DNA from: Anaerolineales bacterium
GTDB taxonomy: Bacteria; Chloroflexota; Anaerolineae; Anaerolineales; E44-bin32
Direction of reading: 5' to 3'
DNA length: 64,000 bases
Assembly: GCA_034430695.1 (NCBI GenBank)
Contig: DAOUEE010000200.1
Coordinates: 19,834-83,833 of the forward strand
Under the pieces are notes generated by a model, which was not told the DNA's origin, searched no databases, and saw only the letters and a list, made by a program, of their open reading frames with translations. The translations under genes and the position numbers were made by a program. Of the stretch, positions 136 to 54,177 are shown piece after piece. Positions within the stretch are counted from its first letter, which is position 1; each line of letters opens with the position of its first letter.

Positions 136-834
136 TTGTCATCGAGGGCGCGTTTTTGGAAACAAGCGGTTGAAAGCTTGTTCGTGATTCTACTGCCGAT
201 CAGTCTCATCCTGTCGAGTGTTTATGTCGTACTTTACAGTGCCGGAATCTGGGTTCCGATTGAGTACCGCATGCCTGGTTTTCCAAAGGATAGCTATGGC
301 TTCGGCTTGCAGGACCGGCTGTACTGGTCGTCCGTGGACATCCATTTCTTACTCAGCAACGAGGATATTTCCTACTTCGATTCCTATTCCCTGGCTGATG
401 GATCGCCGATGCACAACGAACGCGAGTTGAAACACATGCAAGATGTCCAGGTCCTGTTGAACGTGATGAAACGCGTCCTGTTGGCTGCCTGGATTCTTGC
501 AGTTCTGATGCTCGTGCTCTTGTGGCGAATGGGTCACAGTCAAGAAATTCCGCGTGCTATATTTCGAGGGATCCGGGCAACATTGATTTTTATCGCTGTG
601 TTGATCCTGGGCATCGTCGTCTCCTTCGGCGTGCTCTTCGTCAGTTTCCATCGCATCTTTTTCGAAGGGGACACCTGGCTGTTCGCCTACTCGGATACGT
701 TCATTCGCTTGTATCCAGAGCGGTTCTGGCGAGATTGTTTCATCCTCTTGGGCCTGGTCACCATTCTGGAGGCGTTGACCGTTTATGGGATCGGCAGACT
801 GCTTGCGAAGAAAATTCCAGCAGAGGCGGGATAA
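136..834 (+). CDS. TIGR01906/DUF1461 (Lit-like) integral membrane protein
   Basis: TTG start 8 nt after AAGGAGG (121-127). One N-terminal TM, an extracytoplasmic segment, then three TMs. FHRIFFEGDTWLF...LYPERFW resembles the family signature. Confidence 0.6.
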   Translation: MSSRARFWKQAVESLFVILLPISLILSSVYVVLYSAGIWVPIEYRMPGFPKDSYGFGLQDRLYWSSVDIHFLLSNEDISYFDSYSLADGSPMHNERELKHMQDVQVLLNVMKRVLLAAWILAVLMLVLLWRMGHSQEIPRAIFRGIRATLIFIAVLILGIVVSFGVLFVSFHRIFFEGDTWLFAYSDTFIRLYPERFWRDCFILLGLVTILEALTVYGIGRLLAKKIPAEAG

Positions 835-954
835 CGGATTTTGTTGTTTTTCAAGAAATCTGCGAGGTAGACGAACAAATGACAAAGATCGACGTTGGCG
901 TCGATCTTTGTCATTACGTTAGGAGTTGATATAGGGTAACGCCGTGAAGATCTT

Positions 955-2166
955 CTAAGCCCCGAATTTATCCAGCCGGTTCGCGTGTGCCATCATCAAC
1001 GGCATGAGCGTTGTGGCAGGGATCGTCCCCAAACCGCCGCGCCCACATGCTCGCTCGCCGAAGGTTTTTTCCGCGTCCGCTCTTGCGGTTTCCGGAGCCC
1101 AGAGCAGGGCGGGAACCGGGTGCCAGGAATGTGAACGCAATCTTGCGGGTGTGGAATGATCGCCGGTAACGACGACGACGTCCGGATTCAAGTCCATCAA
1201 CTGCGGCAGCGCCGCGTCCACGCTCTCGATGATTTTAACCTTGCCTTCGAAGTTCCCGTCTTCGCCTTTGCTGTCGGTCTTCTTGATGTGAATGAAGAAG
1301 AAATCGTAATCGTTCCATCGTTGTGAAACAATCTGGAATTCCTGCTCGGGTGTTTCGCCCTCGAATTCGATGAGCTCCATTCCGACCAGTTTTGATACGC
1401 CGCGGTACATCGGGTATACAGCGATACAGCCGGCGCGTAGCCCGAAGATTTCGGGAAATTGCGGCAGGCCGGGGTCGGTCGAAAACCCGCGCAGGGTCAA
1501 TGCATTGGCTTTGGGCTGGGATTGCAGTTTCTCACGCGCAGCCGTGATCCATTGGTTGAAATACCCGGCACAAGCCTCGGATTCGCTGTCGAGCGCACGT
1601 GCGGGGAGGGGGGCGACGCCGGTTTGCTGCGGGTCGGTATCCTCGATGTTTGCCGAGAGGCCTTTTCCAGACATAACGGCTGCAAAGCGGTATTCGCGCA
1701 CAGGGCGAACGTCCACATCTACGCCTTCGATCTCGATCTCCTGCAGCTTGTTCACGATGGGAATCGCTTCGTCCGAGGGAATCCTTCCCGCCCGGCGGTC
1801 GATGATTTTCCCCTCGGCATCGACGGTGCAAAAATTCCCCCGAACGGCTACGTGCCCTTTCGATACCGTCATGCCGATACCCGTCGCTTCCAGCACGCCG
1901 CGGCCGACTTCGAACTCGACGGGATCATATCCGAAGAGCCCCAAATGCGCAGGACCTGATCCGGGTGTAATGCCTCGGCGAACGGGAATGGTTTGCCCCA
2001 ACGTTCCCGCCGCTGCCATCCGATCGAGGTTGGGCGTGTTCGCGGCTTCCAGTTCCGTAGGACCACCGGGCTCGATAGGCAGACCGCCGAGACCGTCCAT
2101 GACGAGCAGGACGATTTTGGTATCGTTCTTTTTATGCAGTGACCGCATGAGTTCAAAATCGTGCAT
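955..2166 (-). CDS. apgM: cofactor-independent phosphoglycerate mutase, archaeal type (ApgM)
   Basis: ORF 955..2187 carries KIVLLVMDGLGG and VVVTGDHSTP metalloenzyme motifs. Start moved to ATG 2166 because AAGGAGG lies 8 nt upstream of it. Confidence 0.85.
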   Translation of the reverse strand: MHDFELMRSLHKKNDTKIVLLVMDGLGGLPIEPGGPTELEAANTPNLDRMAAAGTLGQTIPVRRGITPGSGPAHLGLFGYDPVEFEVGRGVLEATGIGMTVSKGHVAVRGNFCTVDAEGKIIDRRAGRIPSDEAIPIVNKLQEIEIEGVDVDVRPVREYRFAAVMSGKGLSANIEDTDPQQTGVAPLPARALDSESEACAGYFNQWITAAREKLQSQPKANALTLRGFSTDPGLPQFPEIFGLRAGCIAVYPMYRGVSKLVGMELIEFEGETPEQEFQIVSQRWNDYDFFFIHIKKTDSKGEDGNFEGKVKIIESVDAALPQLMDLNPDVVVVTGDHSTPARLRSHSWHPVPALLWAPETARADAEKTFGERACGRGGLGTIPATTLMPLMMAHANRLDKFGA

Positions 2167-2190
2167 ATGCAAATCCTCCTTAGTCATAAG

Positions 2191-2222
2191 AAAACCCCCA
2201 CGCCTTTGCAGGCGGGGGGTTT
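2191..2222 (-). terminator. GC-rich hairpin with flanking A/T runs (bidirectional-looking) between the ABC ATPase gene and apgM
   Basis: Stem 2195-2204 / 2211-2219 (CCCCCACGCC/GGCGGGGGG, one mismatch). On the minus strand it is followed by TTTTCTTATG. Confidence 0.5.
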
Positions 2223-2242
2223 AAATTTATGTGTCGGATCTT

Positions 2243-3343
2243 CTACATGATCGCGTTTTGGTCGCCGTCGATGTTGAATAGATGCATGCTGTCCATGTCG
2301 AAGACGCACTCGACGGTGTCGCCGACCTTGAACGCCGTTCGGGGATCGATCCGTCCGATGAAGGAGTTTTCGCCGCTAACGAAGTGCATGAAGATCTCGT
2401 TGCCCATCAACTCGGTCACTTCCACTTTCGCTTCGACCGGGGAGGCGTATACGGGCGGAGAGAACGTCGGGTCGTGCACGTCGTCCGGGCGGATGCCGAA
2501 GATGACTTGCTTGCCGGCGTGAGGCATGTATCGATCCATCTTCGATGGCGGAACGTTGACGTGGAAGGTGTCCGCATCGATGACCAGCGATCCATCTGAC
2601 TTCTCCAGGGTTGCTTTGAAGAAGTTCATCGCCGGTGAACCGATGAATCCGGCCACGAAGACGTTCGACGGGCGATCGTAGAGTTCCTGCGGCGTGTCTA
2701 CCTGCTGGAGGACACCGCCTCGCATCACGGCGATGCGGTCGGCCATCGTCATGGCCTCGGTCTGATCGTGCGTCACGTAGATGAAGGTCGTCTTCAGGCG
2801 GTGATGCAGTTTGCTGATTTCGGCCCTCATTTGAACTCTCAATTTCGCATCCAGGTTCGAGAGGGGTTCGTCGAACAGGAAGACCTGCGGTTCGCGCACG
2901 ATGGCTCGGCCAACGGCAACGCGCTGGCGCTCACCACCGGACAACTGGCGAGGTTTCCGATCCAGGAGGTGTTCGATGCTGAGAATGTCAGCGGCTTCCT
3001 GAACGCGCCGTTTGATCTCTTCCTTGGGTGTTTTGCGCAGTTTGAGGCCGAAAGCCATGTTGTCGAATACGGACATGTGCGGGTACAACGCGTAGGACTG
3101 AAACACCATGGCGATGTCCCGGTCTTTTGGCTCGATGTCGTTGACGATGCGATCGCCGATGGCGATCGTTCCTTCGTCGATCTCCTCGAGACCTGCGAGC
3201 AGGCGGAGACCGGTGGTCTTGCCGCATCCTGACGGCCCGACCAGTACAAGGAACTCCCTGTCGATGATATTGAGGTTCATGTCGTTGACTGCAGTTACGT
3301 CTCCAAAATGCTTACTTACGTGTGTATAACTTACGGTGGCCAT
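2243..3343 (-). CDS. sugar ABC transporter ATP-binding protein (MalK/UgpC/MsiK type), with no permease or binding protein adjacent
   Basis: Walker A GPSGCGKTT, signature LSGGERQR, Walker B FLFDEPLS and a C-terminal MalK-like regulatory domain. Start MATVSYTHV at 3343 follows AAGGAGGAAG. The ORF-track N-terminal extension to 3907 is rejected. Confidence 0.9.
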   Translation of the reverse strand: MATVSYTHVSKHFGDVTAVNDMNLNIIDREFLVLVGPSGCGKTTGLRLLAGLEEIDEGTIAIGDRIVNDIEPKDRDIAMVFQSYALYPHMSVFDNMAFGLKLRKTPKEEIKRRVQEAADILSIEHLLDRKPRQLSGGERQRVAVGRAIVREPQVFLFDEPLSNLDAKLRVQMRAEISKLHHRLKTTFIYVTHDQTEAMTMADRIAVMRGGVLQQVDTPQELYDRPSNVFVAGFIGSPAMNFFKATLEKSDGSLVIDADTFHVNVPPSKMDRYMPHAGKQVIFGIRPDDVHDPTFSPPVYASPVEAKVEVTELMGNEIFMHFVSGENSFIGRIDPRTAFKVGDTVECVFDMDSMHLFNIDGDQNAIM

Positions 3344-3424
3344 GAGCCGTCTTCCTCCTTCTTTTGGGTATAGTGCCACCATTATACACGCAACCAGAGC
3401 AACATAAAAGATTTTAAGCCGCTC

Positions 3425-4831
3425 ATGTTGACGCTGTATATCCTCTCTGGTATAGTCGTCCTCGTGTACAGGACACCGGGTCAATCCAATCAGAACGGAA
3501 AAACACCGCATAGATTTCGTGGACTCGTCCGCTGGCTCCAGCCAGGATTGGGGGTCAAGCGTTGGTTCGTGATTCTGATCGTCGGCGTGGCCTTGATCGG
3601 ATTGGGCGTTGCGGTGATTCTGCTCGATATCTATCGAAACCATCCACAATCCCCCTGGCTCGCAATTTTGAGTCTTCGCGATCTGCCGCGCTGGCTGCGG
3701 GCGGTCGTGCTGGGAATCTCCGGTTTCCTGCTGACTTTCTTTGCCGTTGTGAGGCTCAATCGCGCTTTGCTTGCGCCGTATCTCCGCCCTGGAAAGCCTT
3801 TGGTGGAAGCCGTAGCCCGGTATCGGCGCCTGGGCCGCGGTCCGAAGATCGTCGCCATCGGTGGAGGTACCGGATTGTCCACGCTGCTGCGTGGCCTGAA
3901 AAAGCACACCGGCAATCTGACCGCCATCGTGACGGTCGCAGACGATGGGGGTTCCTCCGGAAGGCTGCGCCAGTCGCTGGGACTGCCTCCGCCGGGTGAC
4001 ATTCGCAACTGCCTCGCTGCGCTGTCTGACGATGAAGATTTACTGACGCAGCTGTTTCAATATCGCTTTCTCGAAGGAGAAGAATTAAACGGCCATTCCT
4101 TCGGAAATCTCTTCATCGCCGCTCTGGCAGGTGTGACCGGCAGTTTCGATCAAGGTATCCTGGAGACGGGGCGCGTACTGGCGATCCACGGCCAGGTACT
4201 GCCTTCCACGTTGGAAGACGTCGCTTTATCCGCAGATAAAGCTCCTGCACTTGCCGACAGAGCGGTACGAGTGGAAGGCGAGAGTCGCATTCCCGATATA
4301 CCAGGCAGGATAGAAAGGGTGCAGCTCGAACCCAACGATCCACCCGCTTATCCCGGTGCGATCCAGGCGATCCTGGCTGCGGACATGATCGTCGTTGGCC
4401 CGGGGAGCTTGTATACCTCCGTTCTGCCCAACTTGCTGGTTCCGGACATCGTCCAGGCCATACAGGCTTCAAGCGCTTTTAAAACGTACGTTTGCAACGT
4501 GGCGACACAGAAGGGGGAAACGGAGGGTTATAATTGTCAGCAGCATCTGGAAGCCATCGAAAATCACGTCGGATTGGGGTTGGTGGATTTGGTTGTAGCC
4601 AACGATGGTCATCTGGATGCCAAGCCGGATGGAACCGAAATGGTCGAGCCCGTGTTCGATGGGAACACGCTGGTCCAACTCTACACTGCAGATTTGGTCG
4701 ACGTAGATCGGCCCTGGCGGCATGATGCGCGGAAGTTGGCTGAAGCGCTGATCGCGCTGCTCGAAGAACGAACGGGTCCGTTGGATCTGCAGTCGATGGA
4801 TGAACAAGATACCAATCCGGATCTGAACTGA
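3425..4831 (+). CDS. yvcK: gluconeogenesis factor YvcK family (CofD-like, UPF0052) with an N-terminal membrane anchor
   Basis: KIVAIGGGTGLSTLLRGLK...VTVADDGGSSGRLR is typical of YvcK/CofD-like proteins. It is preceded by about 130 aa with 2-3 hydrophobic helices. No SD before ATG 3425, so the start is uncertain. Confidence 0.85.
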   Translation: MLTLYILSGIVVLVYRTPGQSNQNGKTPHRFRGLVRWLQPGLGVKRWFVILIVGVALIGLGVAVILLDIYRNHPQSPWLAILSLRDLPRWLRAVVLGISGFLLTFFAVVRLNRALLAPYLRPGKPLVEAVARYRRLGRGPKIVAIGGGTGLSTLLRGLKKHTGNLTAIVTVADDGGSSGRLRQSLGLPPPGDIRNCLAALSDDEDLLTQLFQYRFLEGEELNGHSFGNLFIAALAGVTGSFDQGILETGRVLAIHGQVLPSTLEDVALSADKAPALADRAVRVEGESRIPDIPGRIERVQLEPNDPPAYPGAIQAILAADMIVVGPGSLYTSVLPNLLVPDIVQAIQASSAFKTYVCNVATQKGETEGYNCQQHLEAIENHVGLGLVDLVVANDGHLDAKPDGTEMVEPVFDGNTLVQLYTADLVDVDRPWRHDARKLAEALIALLEERTGPLDLQSMDEQDTNPDLN

Positions 4832-25232: not shown

Positions 25233-25303
25233 CTGGGGGTCGAGGATTCGAACCTCGGCTGACGGATTCAGAGTCCGCTGTCCTACCACTAGACGAACCC
25301 CCA
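25233..25303 (-). tRNA. tRNA-Gln (anticodon CUG)
   Basis: The cloverleaf folds by hand. Acceptor TGGGGGT/ACCCCCA, D-stem GTCT/GGAC, anticodon stem GCGGA/TCCGT with loop CTCTGAA, T-arm CGAGG-TTCGAAT-CCTCG, discriminator G. CCA is not encoded. Confidence 0.9.
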
Positions 25304-43313: not shown

Positions 43314-46300
43314 ATGGCGAAATTCAATTCCGTTCTACGGCACGCAATCACACCACTGAGTTTCGATGTCGAAACCAAGGTGCATCGAGAACACCTGGTC
43401 GATGAAATCCACGCGAACATTCCCCGAAAACTCATCATCGTTGCCGCCCCGGCAGGATATGGGAAAACGACGCTCCTGGCCGATTTTACGAAACACACAG
43501 AATTGCCGGTTTGTTGGGCGCGGCTGTCTGCGGTAGATCAAGACCTGTTCCATTTTGCCATGGTGCTTTCCAGCTCGCTGCAACGACGTTTCCGGCGTCT
43601 GCAGGGGATTTTTGATTTCGATTCGCTTTCCGATTACTCGCCTGAAGCCCTTGCACGCATGTTTGCCGAGGTGATCGATGCCAAAATTAACGAGACTTTC
43701 GTCATCGCTCTGGACGACGTGCACTGGATCAACAAATCCAAGCCGATCTTGAATTTCCTGGACCAGTTCTTGGAGGAACAACCCGAACAGGCCACGCTCA
43801 TCGCTACGGGGCGAGAAGTTCTGGAGGTTTCTCTGGCAAAGTTCATGGCGGAGGGGAACTTGGTCGGCTTCGGTCCGCAAGATCTGGCCTTGTCGAGAGA
43901 AGAAATTATTCAACTTGCACGCGTTCATTCCAACCTGGAAATCGGTGTGGATGCCGCGGAGCGATTGCAGCATGATACTCGTGGCTGGATCACGGGTGTG
44001 ATCCTCTCGGCGGAACTCTCGGGCCGGGGATTGAATGCGCTGAAGATGAGTTCACGGCCGATGGTTTACGAGTACCTCGCTTCGGTCGTACTGAATCGCC
44101 AACCGGATGATCTGCGCCGTTTCGTGTTGGACACCTCCGTGTTTCCGGTTATGACGGTGGAGGGCTGCAATTACTTGCTGCGGCGTGACGATAGTTCCAG
44201 TATGCTCGCCCGCATCGTCGACCGGGGATTGTTCGTCACGGCGACCGATGAAGGCCCCAGAACATACGAATACCACCCTCAATTCCGTGAATTTCTATTG
44301 GAAACTCTCCAGGGTGGAGATGCGCAGCGATACAAGGGCTTGCTGAACCGTGCGGCGAGATATCTGGCCGATCACGATTCGCCCGAGTATGCCGTCGAGC
44401 TTTTCTGCGATGCCGGGGAAGGAAAACGTGCTGTCGAGCTGGCCGAAGGACGGGCCCGTGAGATGTTTGTCAGCGGGCGTTGGCAAACACTCGAGTTGTG
44501 GGCGCGACGACTCGAAGAGATCGAATCTCCCGCGCCACGCGTGTTGCTTTACCTCGCGGCGAAATATACCCAGCAAGGAAGGCTGGAGGAAGCGGAGAAA
44601 AATCTCGATCAAGCGAAAACGATGCTGGATTTGGATTCGCCCAAAAATTTGCGAGCGTACTATGAAATTCTTCGCGGCCACGTGGCGCTTCGTCGCGGAT
44701 CCTATGAGGCTGTGATCGAGGTTATTGCTCGTGCGGAGGAAATTTTAAAACCGTCCGGCAAGCGCCTGCAAAAAGCAGAATGCTACCGACTGCGTGCGCT
44801 CGCATCTTCGTTGAAGGGAGATTTACTGACGGCCGAATCCTACTGTGCGAAGGCCGTTGCTTTATATCAAAAGACGGACGAAAAATTAGATTTGGCTTAT
44901 GGTTTGATCGATCAATCGACAATTCAGGTGGCTTTGGGAAAATCCTCGGAAGCGTACGCTACGACGAAGCAAGCCCATCAAATTCTGCTGCAAGGTGGAG
45001 CTCCCTTGCCGCTGGCGGTTTCATTCATGAATCTCGCACACGATGCGCATCAGCGCGGTGAGTATGAAGAGGCCATGGAGCTTTACAATGAAGGTCTCAA
45101 GTATACACGTCAAGCGGCCAGCCCTCCTCAAGAAGCCCTGATCCTCTTCGGGCAAGCGGATTTATTCAATGATCTTAACCTCGCCTTGCAGGCTGCAGAA
45201 CTGTACGGATTGGGTCTGGATATTGCCATTCGGTTGGATGATCTACAGCAAATACGTTACGGGTGCGTGCAGACGAGCGTCCTACACCGCAGGCGCGGGG
45301 GAGGCAGCCTGGCGCACGATTGGCTTCGGCGGGCGATCAAACTCGAAAAGACCAGTGATCTGACAACCGATATCTTGATTCAATTGGCGGCACTCGAATC
45401 GATGGCTAAACCCCAGCAGTCCATTATGAAGCTTAAATCCATCCTATTGAAGGAACACAATAGCGATGTCGGTATCACCACTTTAGGTCTCTACTTCCAA
45501 TCGCGGGCGGAGTTTGCGATCGGGGCTCGGGATGAAGCGCAAAATACTCTCGAACGTGCTCTCGGTTGGGCCAACACCAACGGAACCGAACAATTGCTCT
45601 CGGCTGAACTATCATTTGATGATTCCTTTCGAGAGTTTGCAAGGAATCGCCTCACTGGTCACCCTTCTCTTTCGATTGTTCTACGCAGAGTGGATACAAT
45701 GCGTGCAGTCGCGCAACATTACCGGGATATTGGCGAAGAAAAGGATCTTCGGGGCGTGCGACTCGTGTTCAAAGCGTTCGGGGAAGCCAATGTTCTCAAG
45801 AATGATTCCCAGATCACGGATCTGAAACCACTTGCACGAGAAGTGTTGTTCTATTTAATCGATCACCAGCACGTCGACCGGGATGTACTCCTGGAGACTT
45901 TCTGGCAACACCATCCTCCGGGCCGGCAGGTAGCGAATTTGCATACCGCTGTCTACAGCCTGCGTCGTGTACTGGGCCGTTCGACAATTCTACACGAGGG
46001 TTCGGTGTACTCGATCAATGTAGAAATCGCCATCGAATACGACGTGGCTCGATTTGAACGGGCTACATCGGTGGCTGAAAGCCTTCCGATTGGGGATCCT
46101 CGCCGCATGTTCGCTCTTACGGAAGCGATCAATTCATACACGGGATCGTTCTTATCCGAATTCGATTCAGATTGGGTGGTCGAACGGCGCCGGGATTTAG
46201 AACTTCAATATCTTGATTTGTTGGCCCAGCACGCCGAAGAGGCGTTGATCCGCGATCAGCCGTTAAGGGCTGTAAATACACTTCGTCAGGCTTTACAAAT

Positions 46301-46472
46301 CGATCCTCTTCGTGATGATACCAACTTCCACTTTTTAGAAGCGCTCGGGCGATTGGGCCGGCGAAGCGAGATCGTGGCTCACTATCAGAAGTATGTGAAC
46401 GGGCTCTCGACAGAATTGGGGTTGGATCCGCCGAAAACAGTCCGTGATCTTTACGCTCGTTTAATAAAGTGA
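43314..46472 (+). CDS. MalT-like STAND NTPase + TPR + C-terminal OmpR-type wHTH + BTAD (SARP-like) transcriptional regulator
   Basis: Walker A AAPAGYGKTTLL and Walker B FVIALDDVHW, with a MalT-like arm (TRGWITGV, YEYHPQFREFL). Long TPR-like middle. C-terminus (from about 45760) LAREVLFYLI...LLETFWQHHPPGRQVANLHTAVYSLRRVLG, then a BTAD helical domain ending LYARLIK. Start taken at ATG 43314. Confidence 0.85.
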   Translation: MAKFNSVLRHAITPLSFDVETKVHREHLVDEIHANIPRKLIIVAAPAGYGKTTLLADFTKHTELPVCWARLSAVDQDLFHFAMVLSSSLQRRFRRLQGIFDFDSLSDYSPEALARMFAEVIDAKINETFVIALDDVHWINKSKPILNFLDQFLEEQPEQATLIATGREVLEVSLAKFMAEGNLVGFGPQDLALSREEIIQLARVHSNLEIGVDAAERLQHDTRGWITGVILSAELSGRGLNALKMSSRPMVYEYLASVVLNRQPDDLRRFVLDTSVFPVMTVEGCNYLLRRDDSSSMLARIVDRGLFVTATDEGPRTYEYHPQFREFLLETLQGGDAQRYKGLLNRAARYLADHDSPEYAVELFCDAGEGKRAVELAEGRAREMFVSGRWQTLELWARRLEEIESPAPRVLLYLAAKYTQQGRLEEAEKNLDQAKTMLDLDSPKNLRAYYEILRGHVALRRGSYEAVIEVIARAEEILKPSGKRLQKAECYRLRALASSLKGDLLTAESYCAKAVALYQKTDEKLDLAYGLIDQSTIQVALGKSSEAYATTKQAHQILLQGGAPLPLAVSFMNLAHDAHQRGEYEEAMELYNEGLKYTRQAASPPQEALILFGQADLFNDLNLALQAAELYGLGLDIAIRLDDLQQIRYGCVQTSVLHRRRGGGSLAHDWLRRAIKLEKTSDLTTDILIQLAALESMAKPQQSIMKLKSILLKEHNSDVGITTLGLYFQSRAEFAIGARDEAQNTLERALGWANTNGTEQLLSAELSFDDSFREFARNRLTGHPSLSIVLRRVDTMRAVAQHYRDIGEEKDLRGVRLVFKAFGEANVLKNDSQITDLKPLAREVLFYLIDHQHVDRDVLLETFWQHHPPGRQVANLHTAVYSLRRVLGRSTILHEGSVYSINVEIAIEYDVARFERATSVAESLPIGDPRRMFALTEAINSYTGSFLSEFDSDWVVERRRDLELQYLDLLAQHAEEALIRDQPLRAVNTLRQALQIDPLRDDTNFHFLEALGRLGRRSEIVAHYQKYVNGLSTELGLDPPKTVRDLYARLIK

Positions 46473-46677: not shown

Positions 46678-46710
46678 GTTGAGAATCTGTTGAGACCTTT
46701 ATTGTAGAGT
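46678..46710 (+). promoter_or_regulatory. candidate SARP-box promoter: two exact heptamer direct repeats at 11-bp spacing plus a -10-like hexamer
   Basis: GTTGAGA (46678-46684), atct, GTTGAGA (46689-46695), 9 nt, then TAGAGT (46705-46710). It lies 28 nt upstream of the micropeptide SD. Confidence 0.4.
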
Positions 46711-46749: not shown

Positions 46750-46800
46750 ATGCCGAATGTGCGCTGCGTTCGCGGTGGTGGTCTTATTGGCGGGGGCTAG
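46750..46800 (+). CDS. candidate 16-aa Gly-rich micropeptide or leader peptide (MPNVRCVRGGGLIGGG)
   Basis: Perfect AAGGAGG (46738-46744), 5 nt, ATG, then 16 codons ending in TAG. Followed by a palindrome and a terminator. Confidence 0.35.
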   Translation: MPNVRCVRGGGLIGGG

Positions 46801-46843: not shown

Positions 46844-46880
46844 GGCAGCGAGGCGACTTGACTTGCTGCCTTTTTATTTC
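46844..46880 (+). terminator. intrinsic terminator or attenuator after the micropeptide ORF
   Basis: GGCAGCGAG / CTTGCTGCC, a 9-bp stem (one G-U pair) with a 9-nt loop, followed by TTTTTATTTC. Confidence 0.55.
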
Positions 46881-46919: not shown

Positions 46920-47210
46920 ATGAGTATGCAGAGTCTGAATCAACTTGTGGCGCGTTCGATTATCGATCCCGGGATCGTGCAGGCTTTCAGTTCCGGAAAC
47001 AGGTCTGCAATCCTCAGCGAAATGGAGTTTTCGCCCGAGCTTCGGTCGGATCTCAACTGCATTGAAGCGAGTTCGTTTGTGGAATTCGCGATCAAAGCCT
47101 ACCGTGTGGTAAAAGCTTCGGAAGTAAAGCCGCTGCAAATCGAACTTCCCTCTCCGATTGCGGGTTTGGTGCCGGATCAAGATTGTGCTGAGGGTGAACA
47201 AGCTGCATGA
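46920..47210 (+). CDS. 96-aa helical protein with faint LigA / NHLP-leader-like resemblance
   Basis: AGGAGG (46907-46912), 7 nt, then ATG. SLNQLVARSIIDPGIVQAFSSGN...FSPELRSDLNCIEASSFVEFA resembles LigA-subunit/NHLP-clan small proteins. This is from memory, not a search. Confidence 0.55.
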   Translation: MSMQSLNQLVARSIIDPGIVQAFSSGNRSAILSEMEFSPELRSDLNCIEASSFVEFAIKAYRVVKASEVKPLQIELPSPIAGLVPDQDCAEGEQAA

Positions 47211-47707
47211 TCACATGCACGAAGAAGGAGCGGGAGTGGTTCTTGCAGAACATCGCACAGGGACTTGTGGATTATCTCGGTGTGATGGAGCCTCCTGTGC
47301 CGATCGAGAAACTGCTTAGAAATCCCCCGGCGATATACGATGCGGACTTCGGCGTCGTAGAAATGAATTCCGAGCTGTGGGATGCGACGTTCGCGCGGCT
47401 GCCCGATCAGAGTGGTAAAATTTTCGTCCACTCGGATCTCGGACCAGAAGCGCGTCGATATGCATTGGCGCGTGAAACGCTGAGCGCCTTGATCACGAGC
47501 AAGCACGGTCAAAATCTGGGTCTTTTCGAATTGGTCGAATCGCACTTGAGAGAATCTGCGGAATTTTTTGCCCGAATACTTCTAGCCCCTCCGCGCTTAC
47601 TGCGCTGCTTTTGTTCAGGGGATGGAGCGGTAACGAGGATCGTGAAAGAATTTAAGCTCCCGATGCACGCGGCATCGAAACTTTGTGAAGATATGAGCAC
47701 TGCGTAA
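47207..47707 (+). CDS. ImmA/IrrE (M78, COG2856)-like protein lacking the HExxH zinc site
   Basis: ATGA overlap with the upstream gene. IFVHSDLGPEARRYALARETLSAL...ESAEFFARILLAPPRLL parallels the family pattern I.in..l....RRFTLAHELGHal...E.EAN.FAa.LLmP..ll. H-E-x-x-H is replaced by R-E-T-L-S. Confidence 0.6.
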   Translation: MITCTKKEREWFLQNIAQGLVDYLGVMEPPVPIEKLLRNPPAIYDADFGVVEMNSELWDATFARLPDQSGKIFVHSDLGPEARRYALARETLSALITSKHGQNLGLFELVESHLRESAEFFARILLAPPRLLRCFCSGDGAVTRIVKEFKLPMHAASKLCEDMSTA

Positions 47708-47736
47708 TGCAACAGGAGTTGTTTGTTTGACGGATG

Positions 47737-47768
47737 AGCCGGCCTCGGGGCCGGTTCTTTTTCTTTCC
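47737..47768 (+). terminator. intrinsic terminator ending the small-gene cassette
   Basis: AGCCGGCC-tcgg-GGCCGGTT stem followed by TTCTTTTTCTTT. Confidence 0.65.
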
Positions 47769-47887: not shown

Positions 47888-49810
47888 TTGACGGAAAAGC
47901 AGGCATCTCTGACAGACACATCACCCGGGGCACGAAGGACATCTAGGAAGCCCTGGATTTTTCGATCCTTTCTTTTTATCTCGCTGCTCGCAGTTGTTGG
48001 GATCGGATGGATAAGTATTGGGGTTCAGAATCGATTGCGCGACTCGGATCTGGATCCGACATTGATCTCGCTGGCCACTTCGTTGGCATATACCGCCACA
48101 CCAAGTCCATCGCCCACGGTTTCTCCTGCCTTGCCAACCAACACTCCAGCACCCACAAGAATTACCTCGTGGGGAACGATCATTTTTTCGGCAAGAGGGA
48201 ATGGGTACACACACTTGTGGGCCTATGTGCCCGGGGATTCGAACTCGGTCCAACTGACGGGAGGCCCGTGGGACGATCGCGATCCCGCGGTGAGTCCCGA
48301 TGGGTTTTCGGTTGCCTTCACCTCGAGGCGGAATGGATACTGGGATTTATATATCCTCGATCTGCAGTCGGGCGACATCCGGCGGCTTTCCAATACCCCT
48401 GGCTACGAAGGCAATCCGACGTGGTCTCCGGACGGGCACTGGTTGGCGTTCGAGGCCTACTACAATGACAATTTCGACATCTGGATCGTTCCTGTCGATC
48501 TGGGACAAGATCCGATCCAGCTCACGATTCATCCGGGTGCGGATCTTAGTCCGAGTTGGGATCCCCAAGGCCGCAGGATAGCTTTTGTCTCCGATCGAGA
48601 CGACTCCCCCGACATCTTTCTGGCAAATCTCGATGAACCGGATGATCGTTTTCTCAACATCACCAACACCAAATCGACCGTCGAGAGCATGCCGGTTTTC
48701 AGTGATGACGGTTCGTCATTGGCCTACAGCGAATCCTCCTCGGGTATCGATGTCGTCAAGGTGTTCGATTTGAATGACATCAACCACCCGCCATACGAAG
48801 TCGGGCAGGGCCGGCACGCTGCCTGGTCTCCAGATGGCCGTTACATGGTCACTATATTGCGTACGGCGCTGTACCGGCGATTTCAAGTTTTCGCTCTGGA
48901 TCACGTTGAGGCAGCGGATTTGCCGGTTTTACCGTGGATCGATGTCGACGACGTTACCTGGACGGCGGCCGGAATGCCGGGAGAGATTTCCGCTGTCGAT
49001 CGCTTGCCGCCCACCGATGCGCCGCTGTTGAATGATGCGGCTAACGAATCACAGGATGCGAATGAATTGATGGATCTCGTCGATCTACCCGGGGTTCGCG
49101 CCCCGCATCCTTCTTTGTCAGACGCCGTCGACCAGGATTTTCTTGCGCTCAAAAAACACAGTATTTCGATCCTGGGATGGGATTTTTTGGAGAGTCTCGA
49201 TAATGCCTTTGTTGGATTGAACGATCCGTTGCCGCCCGGATTTGCCTACAACGATTGGCTTTACACCGGCCGGGCGTTCGCTTTCAACAGCGCGGCGATA
49301 CAGGCTGGATGGGTGGAATTCGTACGCGAGGATTTTGGCGGTCAAACCTACTGGCGGGTGTACGTCCTCGCGGCTCTCCAGGACGGTACTTTGGGCGAAC
49401 CCTTGCGTGAACTGCCGTGGGATTTCGACACACGGATTAACGGCGATCCGAAGACGTACGACCAGGGCGGATCCCTGCGAGAGTCCATTCCCTCGGGCTA
49501 CTACATCGATTTTACGCAGCTGGCCTCCGATTATGGTTTTGAACGACTTCCTGCGCTTTCCAACTGGCGGACGTTTTACCACGGAACGCGTCTCAACGAA
49601 TTCGTCAAACGAGAAGGCCTGAGTTGGACGGAAGCGATGCTGGAATTGTATCCCGCCTCAGCTCTGGTGACTCCTACACCGTTCCAAACTCCGACGAACA
49701 CGCCAACCCGAACGCCGAGGCCGACGGCGACTTCTTGGTGGTGGAAATGGCGGACTCCCTCGGCGACGCCAACGCAGCAGCCGATTTTCACCCCAACTGT
49801 GACACCATGA
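47888..49810 (+). CDS. membrane-anchored TolB-like beta-propeller (PD40 repeats) protein with an uncharacterised C-terminal domain and a Pro/Thr-rich tail
   Basis: N-terminal TM helix. Repeated D..P.(W/V)SPDG...(A/V)F.S pattern (PAVSPDGFSVAFTS, PTWSPDGHWLAFEA, PSWDPQGRRIAFVS, AAWSPDGRYMV). TTG start is uncertain. Confidence 0.8.
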   Translation: MTEKQASLTDTSPGARRTSRKPWIFRSFLFISLLAVVGIGWISIGVQNRLRDSDLDPTLISLATSLAYTATPSPSPTVSPALPTNTPAPTRITSWGTIIFSARGNGYTHLWAYVPGDSNSVQLTGGPWDDRDPAVSPDGFSVAFTSRRNGYWDLYILDLQSGDIRRLSNTPGYEGNPTWSPDGHWLAFEAYYNDNFDIWIVPVDLGQDPIQLTIHPGADLSPSWDPQGRRIAFVSDRDDSPDIFLANLDEPDDRFLNITNTKSTVESMPVFSDDGSSLAYSESSSGIDVVKVFDLNDINHPPYEVGQGRHAAWSPDGRYMVTILRTALYRRFQVFALDHVEAADLPVLPWIDVDDVTWTAAGMPGEISAVDRLPPTDAPLLNDAANESQDANELMDLVDLPGVRAPHPSLSDAVDQDFLALKKHSISILGWDFLESLDNAFVGLNDPLPPGFAYNDWLYTGRAFAFNSAAIQAGWVEFVREDFGGQTYWRVYVLAALQDGTLGEPLRELPWDFDTRINGDPKTYDQGGSLRESIPSGYYIDFTQLASDYGFERLPALSNWRTFYHGTRLNEFVKREGLSWTEAMLELYPASALVTPTPFQTPTNTPTRTPRPTATSWWWKWRTPSATPTQQPIFTPTVTP

Positions 49811-50895
49811 AACGCTCCGGTTTCCTCCTGCTCGCGATCGCGTTGACGTCACTCATGCTCTTCGCCTGTGGAGAGGGGAAAAGCGGTCGTATGCCCCAAC
49901 CAACCGTGACAGATGGTGTCCAATTAGCGCCGTCTGCAACGACGACTCTATCGGCCGGTAAGGATGTGTCGAATCCCATGCTGGGCGACCCGGCCAAAAC
50001 TCCGCTGCCCGTCGCATTTCCTACCGTCGAGCCGAGTGAAGAACTGGATTGGAGACCACCACCGTACCCCGCGCCTTGGGCTCTGCGTCCAGAAGACCAT
50101 TACTACTTCTGGCGACCCATTCCTTCGGGGCAGGTAAATTGGCCCCATCCCTTCTATCGTTATGGAAGCTCATATTTTGGTGAGTCGGACATCCATACCG
50201 GTGTGGATTTAGGCGCCGATCGCGGGGCGCCCGTGCTGGCCGCCGGTCCGGGTGAGGTGGTGTGGGCTGGCTACGGATTGTATCGGGGCATCGAAGATCC
50301 CACCGATCCGTATGGTCTCGCAGTGGCCATTCGACACGATTTTGGCTATCAGGGGCAGGCACTTTATACGATTTATGCTCATATGCAAGAGGTCTTCGTT
50401 TGGGACGGCCAGCACGTGGAGGCCGGCGAGCAGCTTGGTACGGTGGGAACCACGGGTCACTCCGATGGCCCTCACCTGCACTTCGAAGTGCGGTTGGGGG
50501 AAAATCGCTTCTTCAGTACGAGGAATCCAGAATTGTGGATGGTGCCGCCGGAGGGGTGGGCCGTGTTGGCTGGGCGAATTACGGACACGTACGGCAATCT
50601 TCTGCCCGAATTTCCGTTGAAAATCCGATCGCTGGAGACCGGGAAGAAATGGGAAGTCTGGACTTACGTTCTCACGACGATTCACCCCGATGATTACTAC
50701 AACGAGAACTTCGTGATCAGTGATTTGCCGGCGGGGCCGTACGAGATCACGATCGATTTCGTGGGTTTTCAATACGTCGCATATTTGACCCTCTACGCGG
50801 GAGAAACCAATTTCATCCTCTTTCGCGGCCGCAACGGTTTTGTCGTTCATCCTACGCCGACGCCCGTCGATCTGTCCAGTCCTCCCGATCTATGA
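49807..50895 (+). CDS. M23 family metalloendopeptidase lipoprotein
   Basis: Lipobox LMLFAC. HTGVDLGA...GHSDGPHLHFEV LytM-type motifs. ATGA overlap with the upstream gene. The ORF-track start at 49624 is rejected. Confidence 0.88.
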   Translation: MKRSGFLLLAIALTSLMLFACGEGKSGRMPQPTVTDGVQLAPSATTTLSAGKDVSNPMLGDPAKTPLPVAFPTVEPSEELDWRPPPYPAPWALRPEDHYYFWRPIPSGQVNWPHPFYRYGSSYFGESDIHTGVDLGADRGAPVLAAGPGEVVWAGYGLYRGIEDPTDPYGLAVAIRHDFGYQGQALYTIYAHMQEVFVWDGQHVEAGEQLGTVGTTGHSDGPHLHFEVRLGENRFFSTRNPELWMVPPEGWAVLAGRITDTYGNLLPEFPLKIRSLETGKKWEVWTYVLTTIHPDDYYNENFVISDLPAGPYEITIDFVGFQYVAYLTLYAGETNFILFRGRNGFVVHPTPTPVDLSSPPDL

Positions 50896-53867: not shown

Positions 53868-53892
53868 CGTTCGAAACATTAATAAAACAAAA

Positions 53893-54177
53893 AGCGATGA
53901 CGGAGACGAGTACATCCCTGTAGGATAGCAAGCGAGTCCGGGTTGGTGTGAGCCGGATATACCCGGTGGGTGGAAAATCCCTCCAGAGCTGTGACCTGAA
54001 AGCAGTTGACACGCTACTAAGGAAACCGGCTTCGCCAGCCGTTATCCACGGCGCGAACATAATCCTGATGTTTCAGGACGTGTTCGATCGAGTGCCTGCG
54101 TCGCTGCAGGAACCGGGGTGGTACCGCGGGAGAACCGTTGCCTCTCGTCCCTATATGAGGACGAGAGTTTTTGTTTT
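53893..54177 (+). promoter_or_regulatory. class I T-box riboswitch leader (probable Ile specifier AUC) with a terminator/antiterminator switch
   Basis: Stem I has K-turn AGCGATGA (53893-53900) paired to AGAGCT (53985-53990), ACGAGTA, AG bulge AGCGAG and distal loop GGTGTGA (53945-53951). The specifier loop is GAAAATCC (53973-53980). F-box CCGTTA is at 54039-54044 and the T-box sequence AACCGGGGTGGTACCGCG at 54111-54128. The terminator is CTCTCGTCC/GGACGAGAG followed by TTTTTGTTTT (54142-54177). Confidence 0.88.

Follow-up and report, generated by a model that had tools for sequence, protein, structure and literature searches.

Stress responses are widely switched by proteases of the ImmA/IrrE type, which act through cleavage of a repressor. 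ImmA counts 169 amino acids (aa), and the described cuts lie between F95 and M96 in ImmR (127 residues) and between L106 and R107 in DdrO (130 residues), that is 24–31 residues from the C-terminus and behind a folded N-terminal domain, which in the case of DdrO contributes to IrrE binding (PMC12828697). For another protein, Rir, binding to the repressor Crh is described and its cleavage could not be shown (PMC12828697), and PrpR associates an IrrE-like fold, lacking conservation of the HEXXH residues, with ligand sensing and with CoA and 4Fe-4S (PMC6765138). In a 2024 review of inactive metallopeptidase homologs, there is no occurrence of M78 (PMC11266112). The present report deals with two overlapping open reading frames (ORFs), ORF A and ORF B, in a 64,000-nucleotide (nt) stretch of DNA from an Anaerolineales bacterium (contig DAOUEE010000200.1; the whole stretch is hereafter called the window), the second of which has the M78 fold without its zinc ligands. 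The reading proposed here, which is given about an even chance, is that ORF B would be a non-catalytic pseudo-peptidase binding its partner ORF A, the pair being expressed under a neighbouring regulator.

In the window, both genes lie on the + strand. ORF A (46920–47210, 96 aa) is preceded by a Shine-Dalgarno sequence (AGGAGG, 8 nt upstream), and ORF B (47207–47707, 166 aa) has its start codon inside the stop codon of ORF A, the junction reading GCT GCA TGA / ATG ATC with a 4-nt ATGA overlap. An earlier note on this DNA had proposed such a pair of ORFs overlapping by ATGA; the sequence bears it out, and contains the strings that the note quoted (RRYALARETLSAL and ESAEFFARILLAPPRLL in ORF B, PLQIELPSPIAGLVPDQDCAEGEQAA at the end of ORF A). 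Neither protein of the window has a Pfam or NCBIfam match of its own, even at E ≤ 10, so that the M78 relationship is visible at the family level only. A homolog search with ORF B returned 62 proteins, nearly all from Anaerolineales metagenome-assembled genomes (MAGs), and the family alignment holds 60 sequences. Peptidase_M78 (PF06114) is matched by 56 of the 60 family members scanned singly (best E 5.6e-10), and profile-to-profile comparison by hhalign with canonical M78, represented by an alignment of six HExxH proteins, gives a probability of 99% (E 4.4e-18 over 142 columns). The profile check that had been suggested for the 166-aa protein thus succeeds with members of its family, but not with the window copy alone. 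An exhaustive profile search with the ORF B family through 1.84 billion representatives recovered 86 proteins at E ≤ 1e-3, with canonical HExxH M78 proteins at the weak end.

The structural comparisons agree with this assignment. The AlphaFold2 model of ORF B (predicted local distance difference test, pLDDT, 80.9; predicted template modelling score, pTM, 0.82) finds as its best Foldseek match in the PDB the PrpR protein of M. tuberculosis (6CYY/6CZ6; query TM-score, TMq, 0.58, probability 1.0), and in BFVD phage models named 'IrrE protein' (TMq 0.44–0.65, probability at least 0.99). Together with PF06114 and hhalign, these matches support the view of the earlier note that ORF B is an M78 (ImmA/IrrE) homolog. 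The fold search was needed, as the ORF B profile matched only luciferase and RNF31 among PDB sequences, and both were judged spurious.

Where canonical M78 proteins carry H-E-x-x-H, ORF B has R89-E90-T-L-S93 (nt 47471–47485, +). According to the hhalign mapping, the first zinc-binding His is replaced by R89, invariant in the family, and the second by the nearly invariant S93; the catalytic Glu is retained as E90, which is invariant in the 60-sequence alignment, as is L92; and the third-ligand Glu, in the ExxAxxFA helix, is replaced by R115 (nt 47549–47551, +), a variable position (R/K/M/W/Q). The replacement of HExxH by R-E-T-L-S had been pointed out before; the loss goes further, since the third ligand is also gone, and HExxH is not recovered by any alternative alignment. 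Among 87 copies (the window and loci L001–L086, a few duplicate contigs included), the motif is RExxS in 76, RExxC in 7 and RExxR in 4, and HExxH occurs in none of them, nor in the nearer HExxH-less clades. That RExxS/C/R is kept throughout these copies indicates that the loss of the zinc ligands is ancient and maintained by selection. More distant HExxH-less clades present R-E, Q-E, C-E, R-A or C-S at the motif positions, the Glu itself being lost in sister clades (R-A in P0169, C-S in P0170) in which the gene pairing persists.

The protein as a whole is highly conserved: 43 of its 166 positions do not vary, and identity averages 69% per column (52–81% to the window copy). The most conserved stretch is the former active-site helix with the turn that follows it (ALARExLSALITSKHG); WDATFAR is also invariant or nearly so, and both segments speak for strong purifying selection; the polar residues H100, E119, D59, S98 and K99 show the same near or full invariance. 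Some ORF B relatives are labelled 'ImmA/IrrE family metallo-endopeptidase' by NCBI. Since ORF B belongs to M78 by fold and sequence but has neither the catalytic features nor an Xre partner, it should, on these alignments, rather be filed as an M78-like pseudo-peptidase: it would lack the capacity to bind catalytic zinc in the canonical way, would be non-catalytic, and would act by binding. The motif is R-L-L-A-R or similar in one more M78-like clade devoid of HExxH (P0203, P0210; L093:1372-2379), whose members, about 140 aa long, are fused to, or stand directly after, an RsmD-like 16S rRNA methyltransferase (Cons_hypoth95).

The partner, ORF A, is an acidic protein (isoelectric point, pI, 4.4; net charge −6.5) that AlphaFold2 models as a five-helix bundle over residues 1–68 (pLDDT > 90), followed by a low-confidence tail that is disordered, acidic and carries an LPSPxxGL motif at residues 76–83 (nt 47145–47168). 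Its family counts 83 homologs, all unannotated and, like those of ORF B, spread over many Anaerolineales MAGs; little or no variation affects the N-terminal LNQLVARSI, R62, the tail L-P-S-P-x-x-G-L or the C-terminal Ala (strictly invariant positions are L6, N7, L9–I14, R62, P77, S78, P79, G82 and A96). Profile scans of 66 members gave no recurrent or significant helix-turn-helix (HTH) match, a single member weakly matching two DNA-binding domains (E 0.16–0.18), and the fold search against the PDB gave nothing below E 2.9 and no HTH fold. The earlier remark that this protein is not an obvious HTH protein is thus backed by profiles, fold and pI, while its likeness to LigA is not upheld: PF07746 has no match at E ≤ 10 among the 66 members, and no LigAB chain figures among the Foldseek PDB matches. 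SBDS_domain_II, touched by 14 of the 66 members below its cutoff (best E 3.6e-4), is taken as small-helical-bundle noise. A broadened search with the ORF A domain listed matches that are all unannotated 'hypothetical protein'.

A third proposal, similarity to NHLP leaders, fares in between. In ORF A itself the signal is barely detectable, with NF038399 (Os1348 family NHLP clan) touched by 2 of the 66 members at E 0.065. In distant relatives (P0178 and P0197), an A-like domain is fused to the N-terminus of a B-like domain, and these fused domains match NF038399 over the full profile (E 3.9e-8 and 1.4e-7; 31.5 and 33.2 bits, below the curated cutoff of 40), the A-like extension also matching Frankia_peptide (PF14407; E 2.6e-5, 24.8 bits against a cutoff of 48). 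The ORF A family aligns with the fused N-termini collinearly from residue 1 (hhalign E 7.7e-6 and 4.9e-5, probability 84% and 68%). The proposal is thus weakly supported, mainly through the match of the fused relatives to NF038399 and PF14407, with all of these scores below the cutoffs. Precursor anatomy was not found in ORF A, whose tail is conserved rather than hypervariable and has no Gly-Gly cleavage motif. Judged by its profiles, ORF A would be an orphan family with a weak affinity for the NHLP clan.

The physical or functional link between ORF A and ORF B is first suggested by the fusion just described, following the Rosetta-stone argument. It is accompanied by a strict association of the genes. 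A locus scan with one genome per species returned 80 loci, one per genome, essentially all from Anaerolineales/Anaerolineae MAGs; adjacency was counted for loci with enough upstream DNA (n = 74 for ORF A, n = 49 for the regulator). ORF A adjoins ORF B in all 74 loci evaluable among the 80 species-level genomes, and the 4-nt overlap (GC[A/G]TGA) is present in 81 of the 82 loci read, the exception (L085) looking degraded; the co-conservation on which the earlier note had made its proposal depend is thus observed, with a regularity well outside what chance would give. In two distant Chloroflexota clades (L088 and L091), A-like genes also precede B-like genes with the regulator present: L088 has a 73-aa A-like protein without tail, overlapping the B-like gene by 4 nt, and in L091 two A-like genes, for 67 and 68 aa, stand in tandem. 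Gene fusion, overlap and co-conservation together suggest that ORF A and ORF B may bind each other, as the sequestration switch put forward in the earlier note would require. The pair belongs to a larger cassette, absent from the earlier note, that comprises a regulator, a repeat promoter, a micropeptide ORF and a terminator, and the regulator (REG), ORF A and ORF B are the only invariant gene set. A literature search found no paper describing this REG-A-B module.

REG (43317–46472, +) is a STAND-type regulator of about 1050 aa, with an AAA ATPase, MalT-like TPR and, at the end, a winged helix and BTAD (Pfam AAA_22/AAA_16, TPR_MalT, and BTAD at 8.9e-20). In its C-terminal 290 aa, Trans_reg_C (E 1.2e-4; 22.5 bits, cutoff 26.2) is directly followed by BTAD (E 4.5e-21), an order from which the C-terminus of REG is predicted to be a SARP-type DNA-binding end, with an OmpR-like winged helix and then BTAD. 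A REG ortholog stands directly upstream of ORF A-ORF B in 49 of 49 evaluable loci; its apparent absence from L036, L051 and L081 was traced to frameshifted long-read assemblies, in which the ortholog is adjacent. Five loci (L036, L048, L051, L054 and L081, at about 780–3950) show a second, diverged STAND/BTAD paralog (about 31–34% identity) in tandem upstream of the orthologous regulator, and the subclade with this tandem paralog is devoid of the PD40 and M23 neighbours mentioned below.

In the classical SARP site, heptamers are repeated in 11-bp units that overlap the −35 region (PMC10972967). In the gap of about 380 bp before ORF A, heptamer direct repeats (GTTGAGA-ATCT-GTTGAGA, 46678–46695, +, 11-bp period), a single match in the 64-kb window and a putative REG binding site, are followed after 9 nt by a −10-like hexamer (TAGAGT, 46705–46710, +) as a putative promoter. 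The strict pattern GT[TA]nAGA-N4-GTTGAGA-N9-TAnnnT is found in about 40 of the 66 leaders compared, and analogous repeats occur in the distant clades (12-bp period in L088, 11-bp period in L091). The repeats and the −10 hexamer match the architecture of SARP target promoters, and REG would be expected to bind there.

About 40 nt downstream of this promoter, an unannotated micro-ORF of 16 codons with a strong AGGAGG Shine-Dalgarno encodes MPNVRCVRGGGLIGGG (46750–46800, +). A Shine-Dalgarno-led ORF of 7–36 codons (most 9–17) occurs in 47 of the 66 leaders, with 27% Gly and 13% Arg and a Gly/Arg/Pro/Cys-rich consensus near M-x-x-x-R-C-P-R-D-G-G-L-x-G-G, several relatives including CxxC (for example MKARCPACGGGGG and MTARCPHCPGGSGGV). 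Entropy at the three codon positions is 0.73/0.84/1.29, thus highest at the third, all four Pro codons are in use, and Arg alternates between CGN and AGR; this third-position variation and synonymous switching point to selection on the micropeptide. Gly-rich counterparts exist in the distant clades L088 and L091. At the micro-ORF position in L091 (region 3671–4637), before the two tandem A-like genes, the encoded protein has 70 aa, carries a hydrophobic signal or anchor at its N-terminus and contains two HMAPHAGG[G/S]SGT repeats, His/Met-rich and reminiscent of metal-binding motifs.

Between the micro-ORF and ORF A, a terminator-like hairpin (GGCAGCGAG / CTTGCTGCC, then TTTTTATTT; 46844–46879, +) has a nearly invariant 5' arm, GGCAGCG[A/G]G in 60 of the 66 leaders and GGCAGCGAG in the window. 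This arm is paired in 59 of 60 minimum free energy folds (median dG −17.3 kcal/mol), at least five T follow within the next 10 nt in 46 of 60 leaders, and the inner stem shows compensating changes. An Rfam search of the leader gave no family matches. Attenuation by alternative pairing was also considered; the complement of the 5' arm inside the micro-ORF beats shuffled sequences in 9 of 60 leaders, and such an antiterminator is left without statistical support. Downstream of ORF B, an intrinsic terminator (47736–47757 followed by a T-run, feature to 47767, +; 9-bp stem with 7 GC pairs) closes the leader-A-B transcription unit.

Beyond this terminator follow a membrane-anchored beta-propeller protein (Pfam PD40; 47888–49810, +), the direct neighbour in 69 of 74 loci, and an M23 peptidase lipoprotein (Pfam Peptidase_M23; 49807–50895, +), found close by in 37 of 63; neither occurs in the distant REG-A-B clades, and they are therefore not part of the core module. 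These two genes are apparently joined by a 4-nt ATGA overlap of their own (49807–49810), if the M23 ATG precedes the lipoprotein-like signal MKRSGFLLLAIALTSLMLFAC. The pair keeps a conserved chromosomal position beside proS and housekeeping genes across about 80 species, its guanine-cytosine (GC) content is 0.52 against 0.555 for the window, PADLOC has no match for ORF A or ORF B, and the PHROG 'metallo-protease' matches are weak. Conserved synteny, near-window GC and the PADLOC result suggest native core genes rather than a mobile element. The window further contains a T-box leader (53888–54155, +) that scores 93.1 bits, at the gathering threshold, and a tRNA gene (25233–25303, −), ordinary chromosomal features that are consistent with a native chromosomal context.

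How could such a module work? ORF B descends from the M78 zinc proteases and most likely binds some protein or peptide while leaving it uncut. Among possible ligands, ORF A would be the most probable, because both are co-produced through the ATGA stop-start overlap and because ORF A has the same layout as the substrates of ImmA/IrrE. Upstream, REG would bind the two 11-bp-spaced heptamers, which would stand in for a −35 element, and switch on the unit. The transcript would first encode the 16-aa Gly-rich micropeptide and then meet the conserved terminator hairpin, where part of the transcripts would be terminated, so that read-through alone would yield ORF A and ORF B. As for the output of the A-B complex, feedback on REG is the simplest guess, given that REG, ORF A and ORF B form the only invariant set.

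Several observations weigh against binding of ORF A by a non-catalytic ORF B. The tail of ORF A is absent in the L088 clade and cannot be a universal ligand. Mutual-information covariation between ORF A and ORF B over 74 pairs is clade-driven, not tail-enriched and uninformative. Rather than protein function, the overlap and the ribosome-binding site of ORF B, as constraints on the nucleotides, may account for the EQ[VA]A ending and its invariant last Ala; a ClpX-type degron at this Ala was likewise set aside, as the last codons overlap the ORF B start and its likely ribosome-binding site. The invariant E90 and the conserved polar residues would also fit retained or new chemistry. Finally, every carrier of the pair is an uncultured MAG, and any test needs heterologous expression.

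Does ORF B still act as an enzyme? The retained Glu with H100, E116/E119, D59 and S98-K99, or a metal coordinated differently, could serve to hydrolyse ORF A, the micropeptide or another substrate. E90 is invariant, H100, K99, S117 and E119 are at least 90% conserved, and 43 invariant positions are unusually many for a pure scaffold; however, none of the residues that stand in for the three canonical ligands is a usual zinc binder, one of them lying at the variable position 115, and the sister clades that have lost the Glu (P0169 and P0170) keep the pairing. Retained catalysis is judged quite improbable. The groove of ORF B could instead bind the micropeptide or the regulator, with ORF A as an adaptor, in an intracellular peptide-sensing loop for a TPR regulator, loosely like Rgg/SHP or PlcR/PapR. 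In three deep clades the micropeptide gene comes directly after the gene of a TPR regulator, behind the putative site of that regulator, and the micropeptide is more widely kept than the ORF A tail. Yet most clades show no export signal, no transporter or oligopeptide permease is linked, and the micro-ORF is undetected in 19 of 66 leaders by the criteria used, which leaves such a loop unlikely.

Biosynthetic clusters are typical SARP targets (PMC10972967), and a system resembling those of peptides made on the ribosome and then modified (RiPPs) could be envisaged, in which ORF A or the Gly/Cys-rich micropeptide would be the precursor, ORF B a leader-binding or processing protein, and REG the cluster-situated regulator. 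The NHLP-clan and Frankia_peptide similarity of A-like domains, the two tandem A-like paralogs in L091 and the composition of the micropeptides, some with CxxC, would fit, whereas no modifying enzyme or exporter is conserved beside the module, the ORF A tail is conserved, has no Gly-Gly motif and is missing in one clade, every profile score is below its curated cutoff, and a single locus per genome with conserved synteny suggests vertical inheritance. A low probability is assigned to such a system. As COG2856 proteins of mobile elements commonly have a small gene upstream as their partner (PMC7907104), a COG2856-Xre type module, either toxin-antitoxin or for phage defence/immunity, was also considered, but the partner is not an Xre HTH protein, and the absence of a PADLOC match, the weak PHROG matches, the native GC and the conserved locus beside proS and housekeeping genes in about 80 species rule out such an origin or make it extremely improbable.

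Taken further, the pseudo-peptidase reading would lead to one undescribed, Chloroflexota-wide circuit, in which a STAND/TPR/SARP regulator, a repeat promoter with its micropeptide, an NHLP-like protein and a zinc-less M78 protein would cooperate, the ex-protease groove serving as receptor for the micropeptide or the ORF A tail and feeding back on REG. This circuit as a whole is doubtful, if conceivable. If true, a protease-substrate pair would have been turned into a peptide-sensing switch, and the leader terminator would add a second level of control. Although the metal site is lost throughout a whole clade, few small proteins of the lineage are as strongly conserved as ORF B, and the HTH partner would have been swapped for an NHLP-like helical protein; the family would thus offer a natural, evolutionarily fixed test case of a zincin groove reused for binding. 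A SARP-type STAND regulator strictly linked to the pair outside Actinomycetota, and a leader micropeptide without annotation, indicate that some of the regulatory repertoire of Anaerolineales, which are abundant and poorly cultured, escapes annotation.

Compared with known systems, the regulator resembles SARPs (AfsR, ActII-ORF4, PimR) in its winged HTH and BTAD joined to ATPase/TPR, as in large SARPs, and the candidate site resembles SARP promoters in its two heptamers in 11-bp units directly upstream of the −10. Unlike in SARPs, the order of REG is reversed (ATPase-TPR first, winged HTH-BTAD last), the host belongs to Chloroflexota and not to Actinomycetota, and no biosynthetic cluster is nearby. 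ORF A shares with proteins of the NHLP clan (NF038399; PF14407; Haft et al. 2010, PMC2887384) a helical N-terminal domain of about 65 aa and a similar sequence pattern; in contrast to NHLP precursors, it has no Gly-Gly site, hypervariable core or linked maturation/export genes, and its scores are sub-cutoff.

The closest likeness of the pair in layout is with ImmA/ImmR (ICEBs1, Bacillus subtilis) and IrrE/DdrO (Deinococcus). ORF B shares their fold and family framework, with 166 aa against 169 for ImmA, and ORF A, like ImmR and DdrO, continues from a folded N-terminal domain into a flexible C-terminal segment, its motif lying 13–20 residues from the C-terminus. Unlike ImmA/IrrE, ORF B lacks the three zinc ligands and its partner is an acidic five-helix bundle without HTH; unlike ImmA/ImmR, the pair is chromosomal, vertically inherited rather than mobile, and invariably accompanied by a STAND/SARP regulator. 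Among solved structures, the best match, the IrrE-like domain of M. tuberculosis PrpR/RamB, is also devoid of HEXXH, but it belongs to a protein with HTH, DUF955/IrrE-like and GAF-like domains, whereas ORF B is stand-alone, without an HTH or GAF-like domain, at 17% identity, and no CoA or Fe-S ligands were identified for it. Finally, in the Rir/Crh pair of a Streptococcus thermophilus phage, unlike ORF A-ORF B, Rir keeps HExxH and Crh is an HTH repressor; as a COG2856 anti-repressor that acts by binding, Rir nevertheless provides a functional precedent for binding without cutting.

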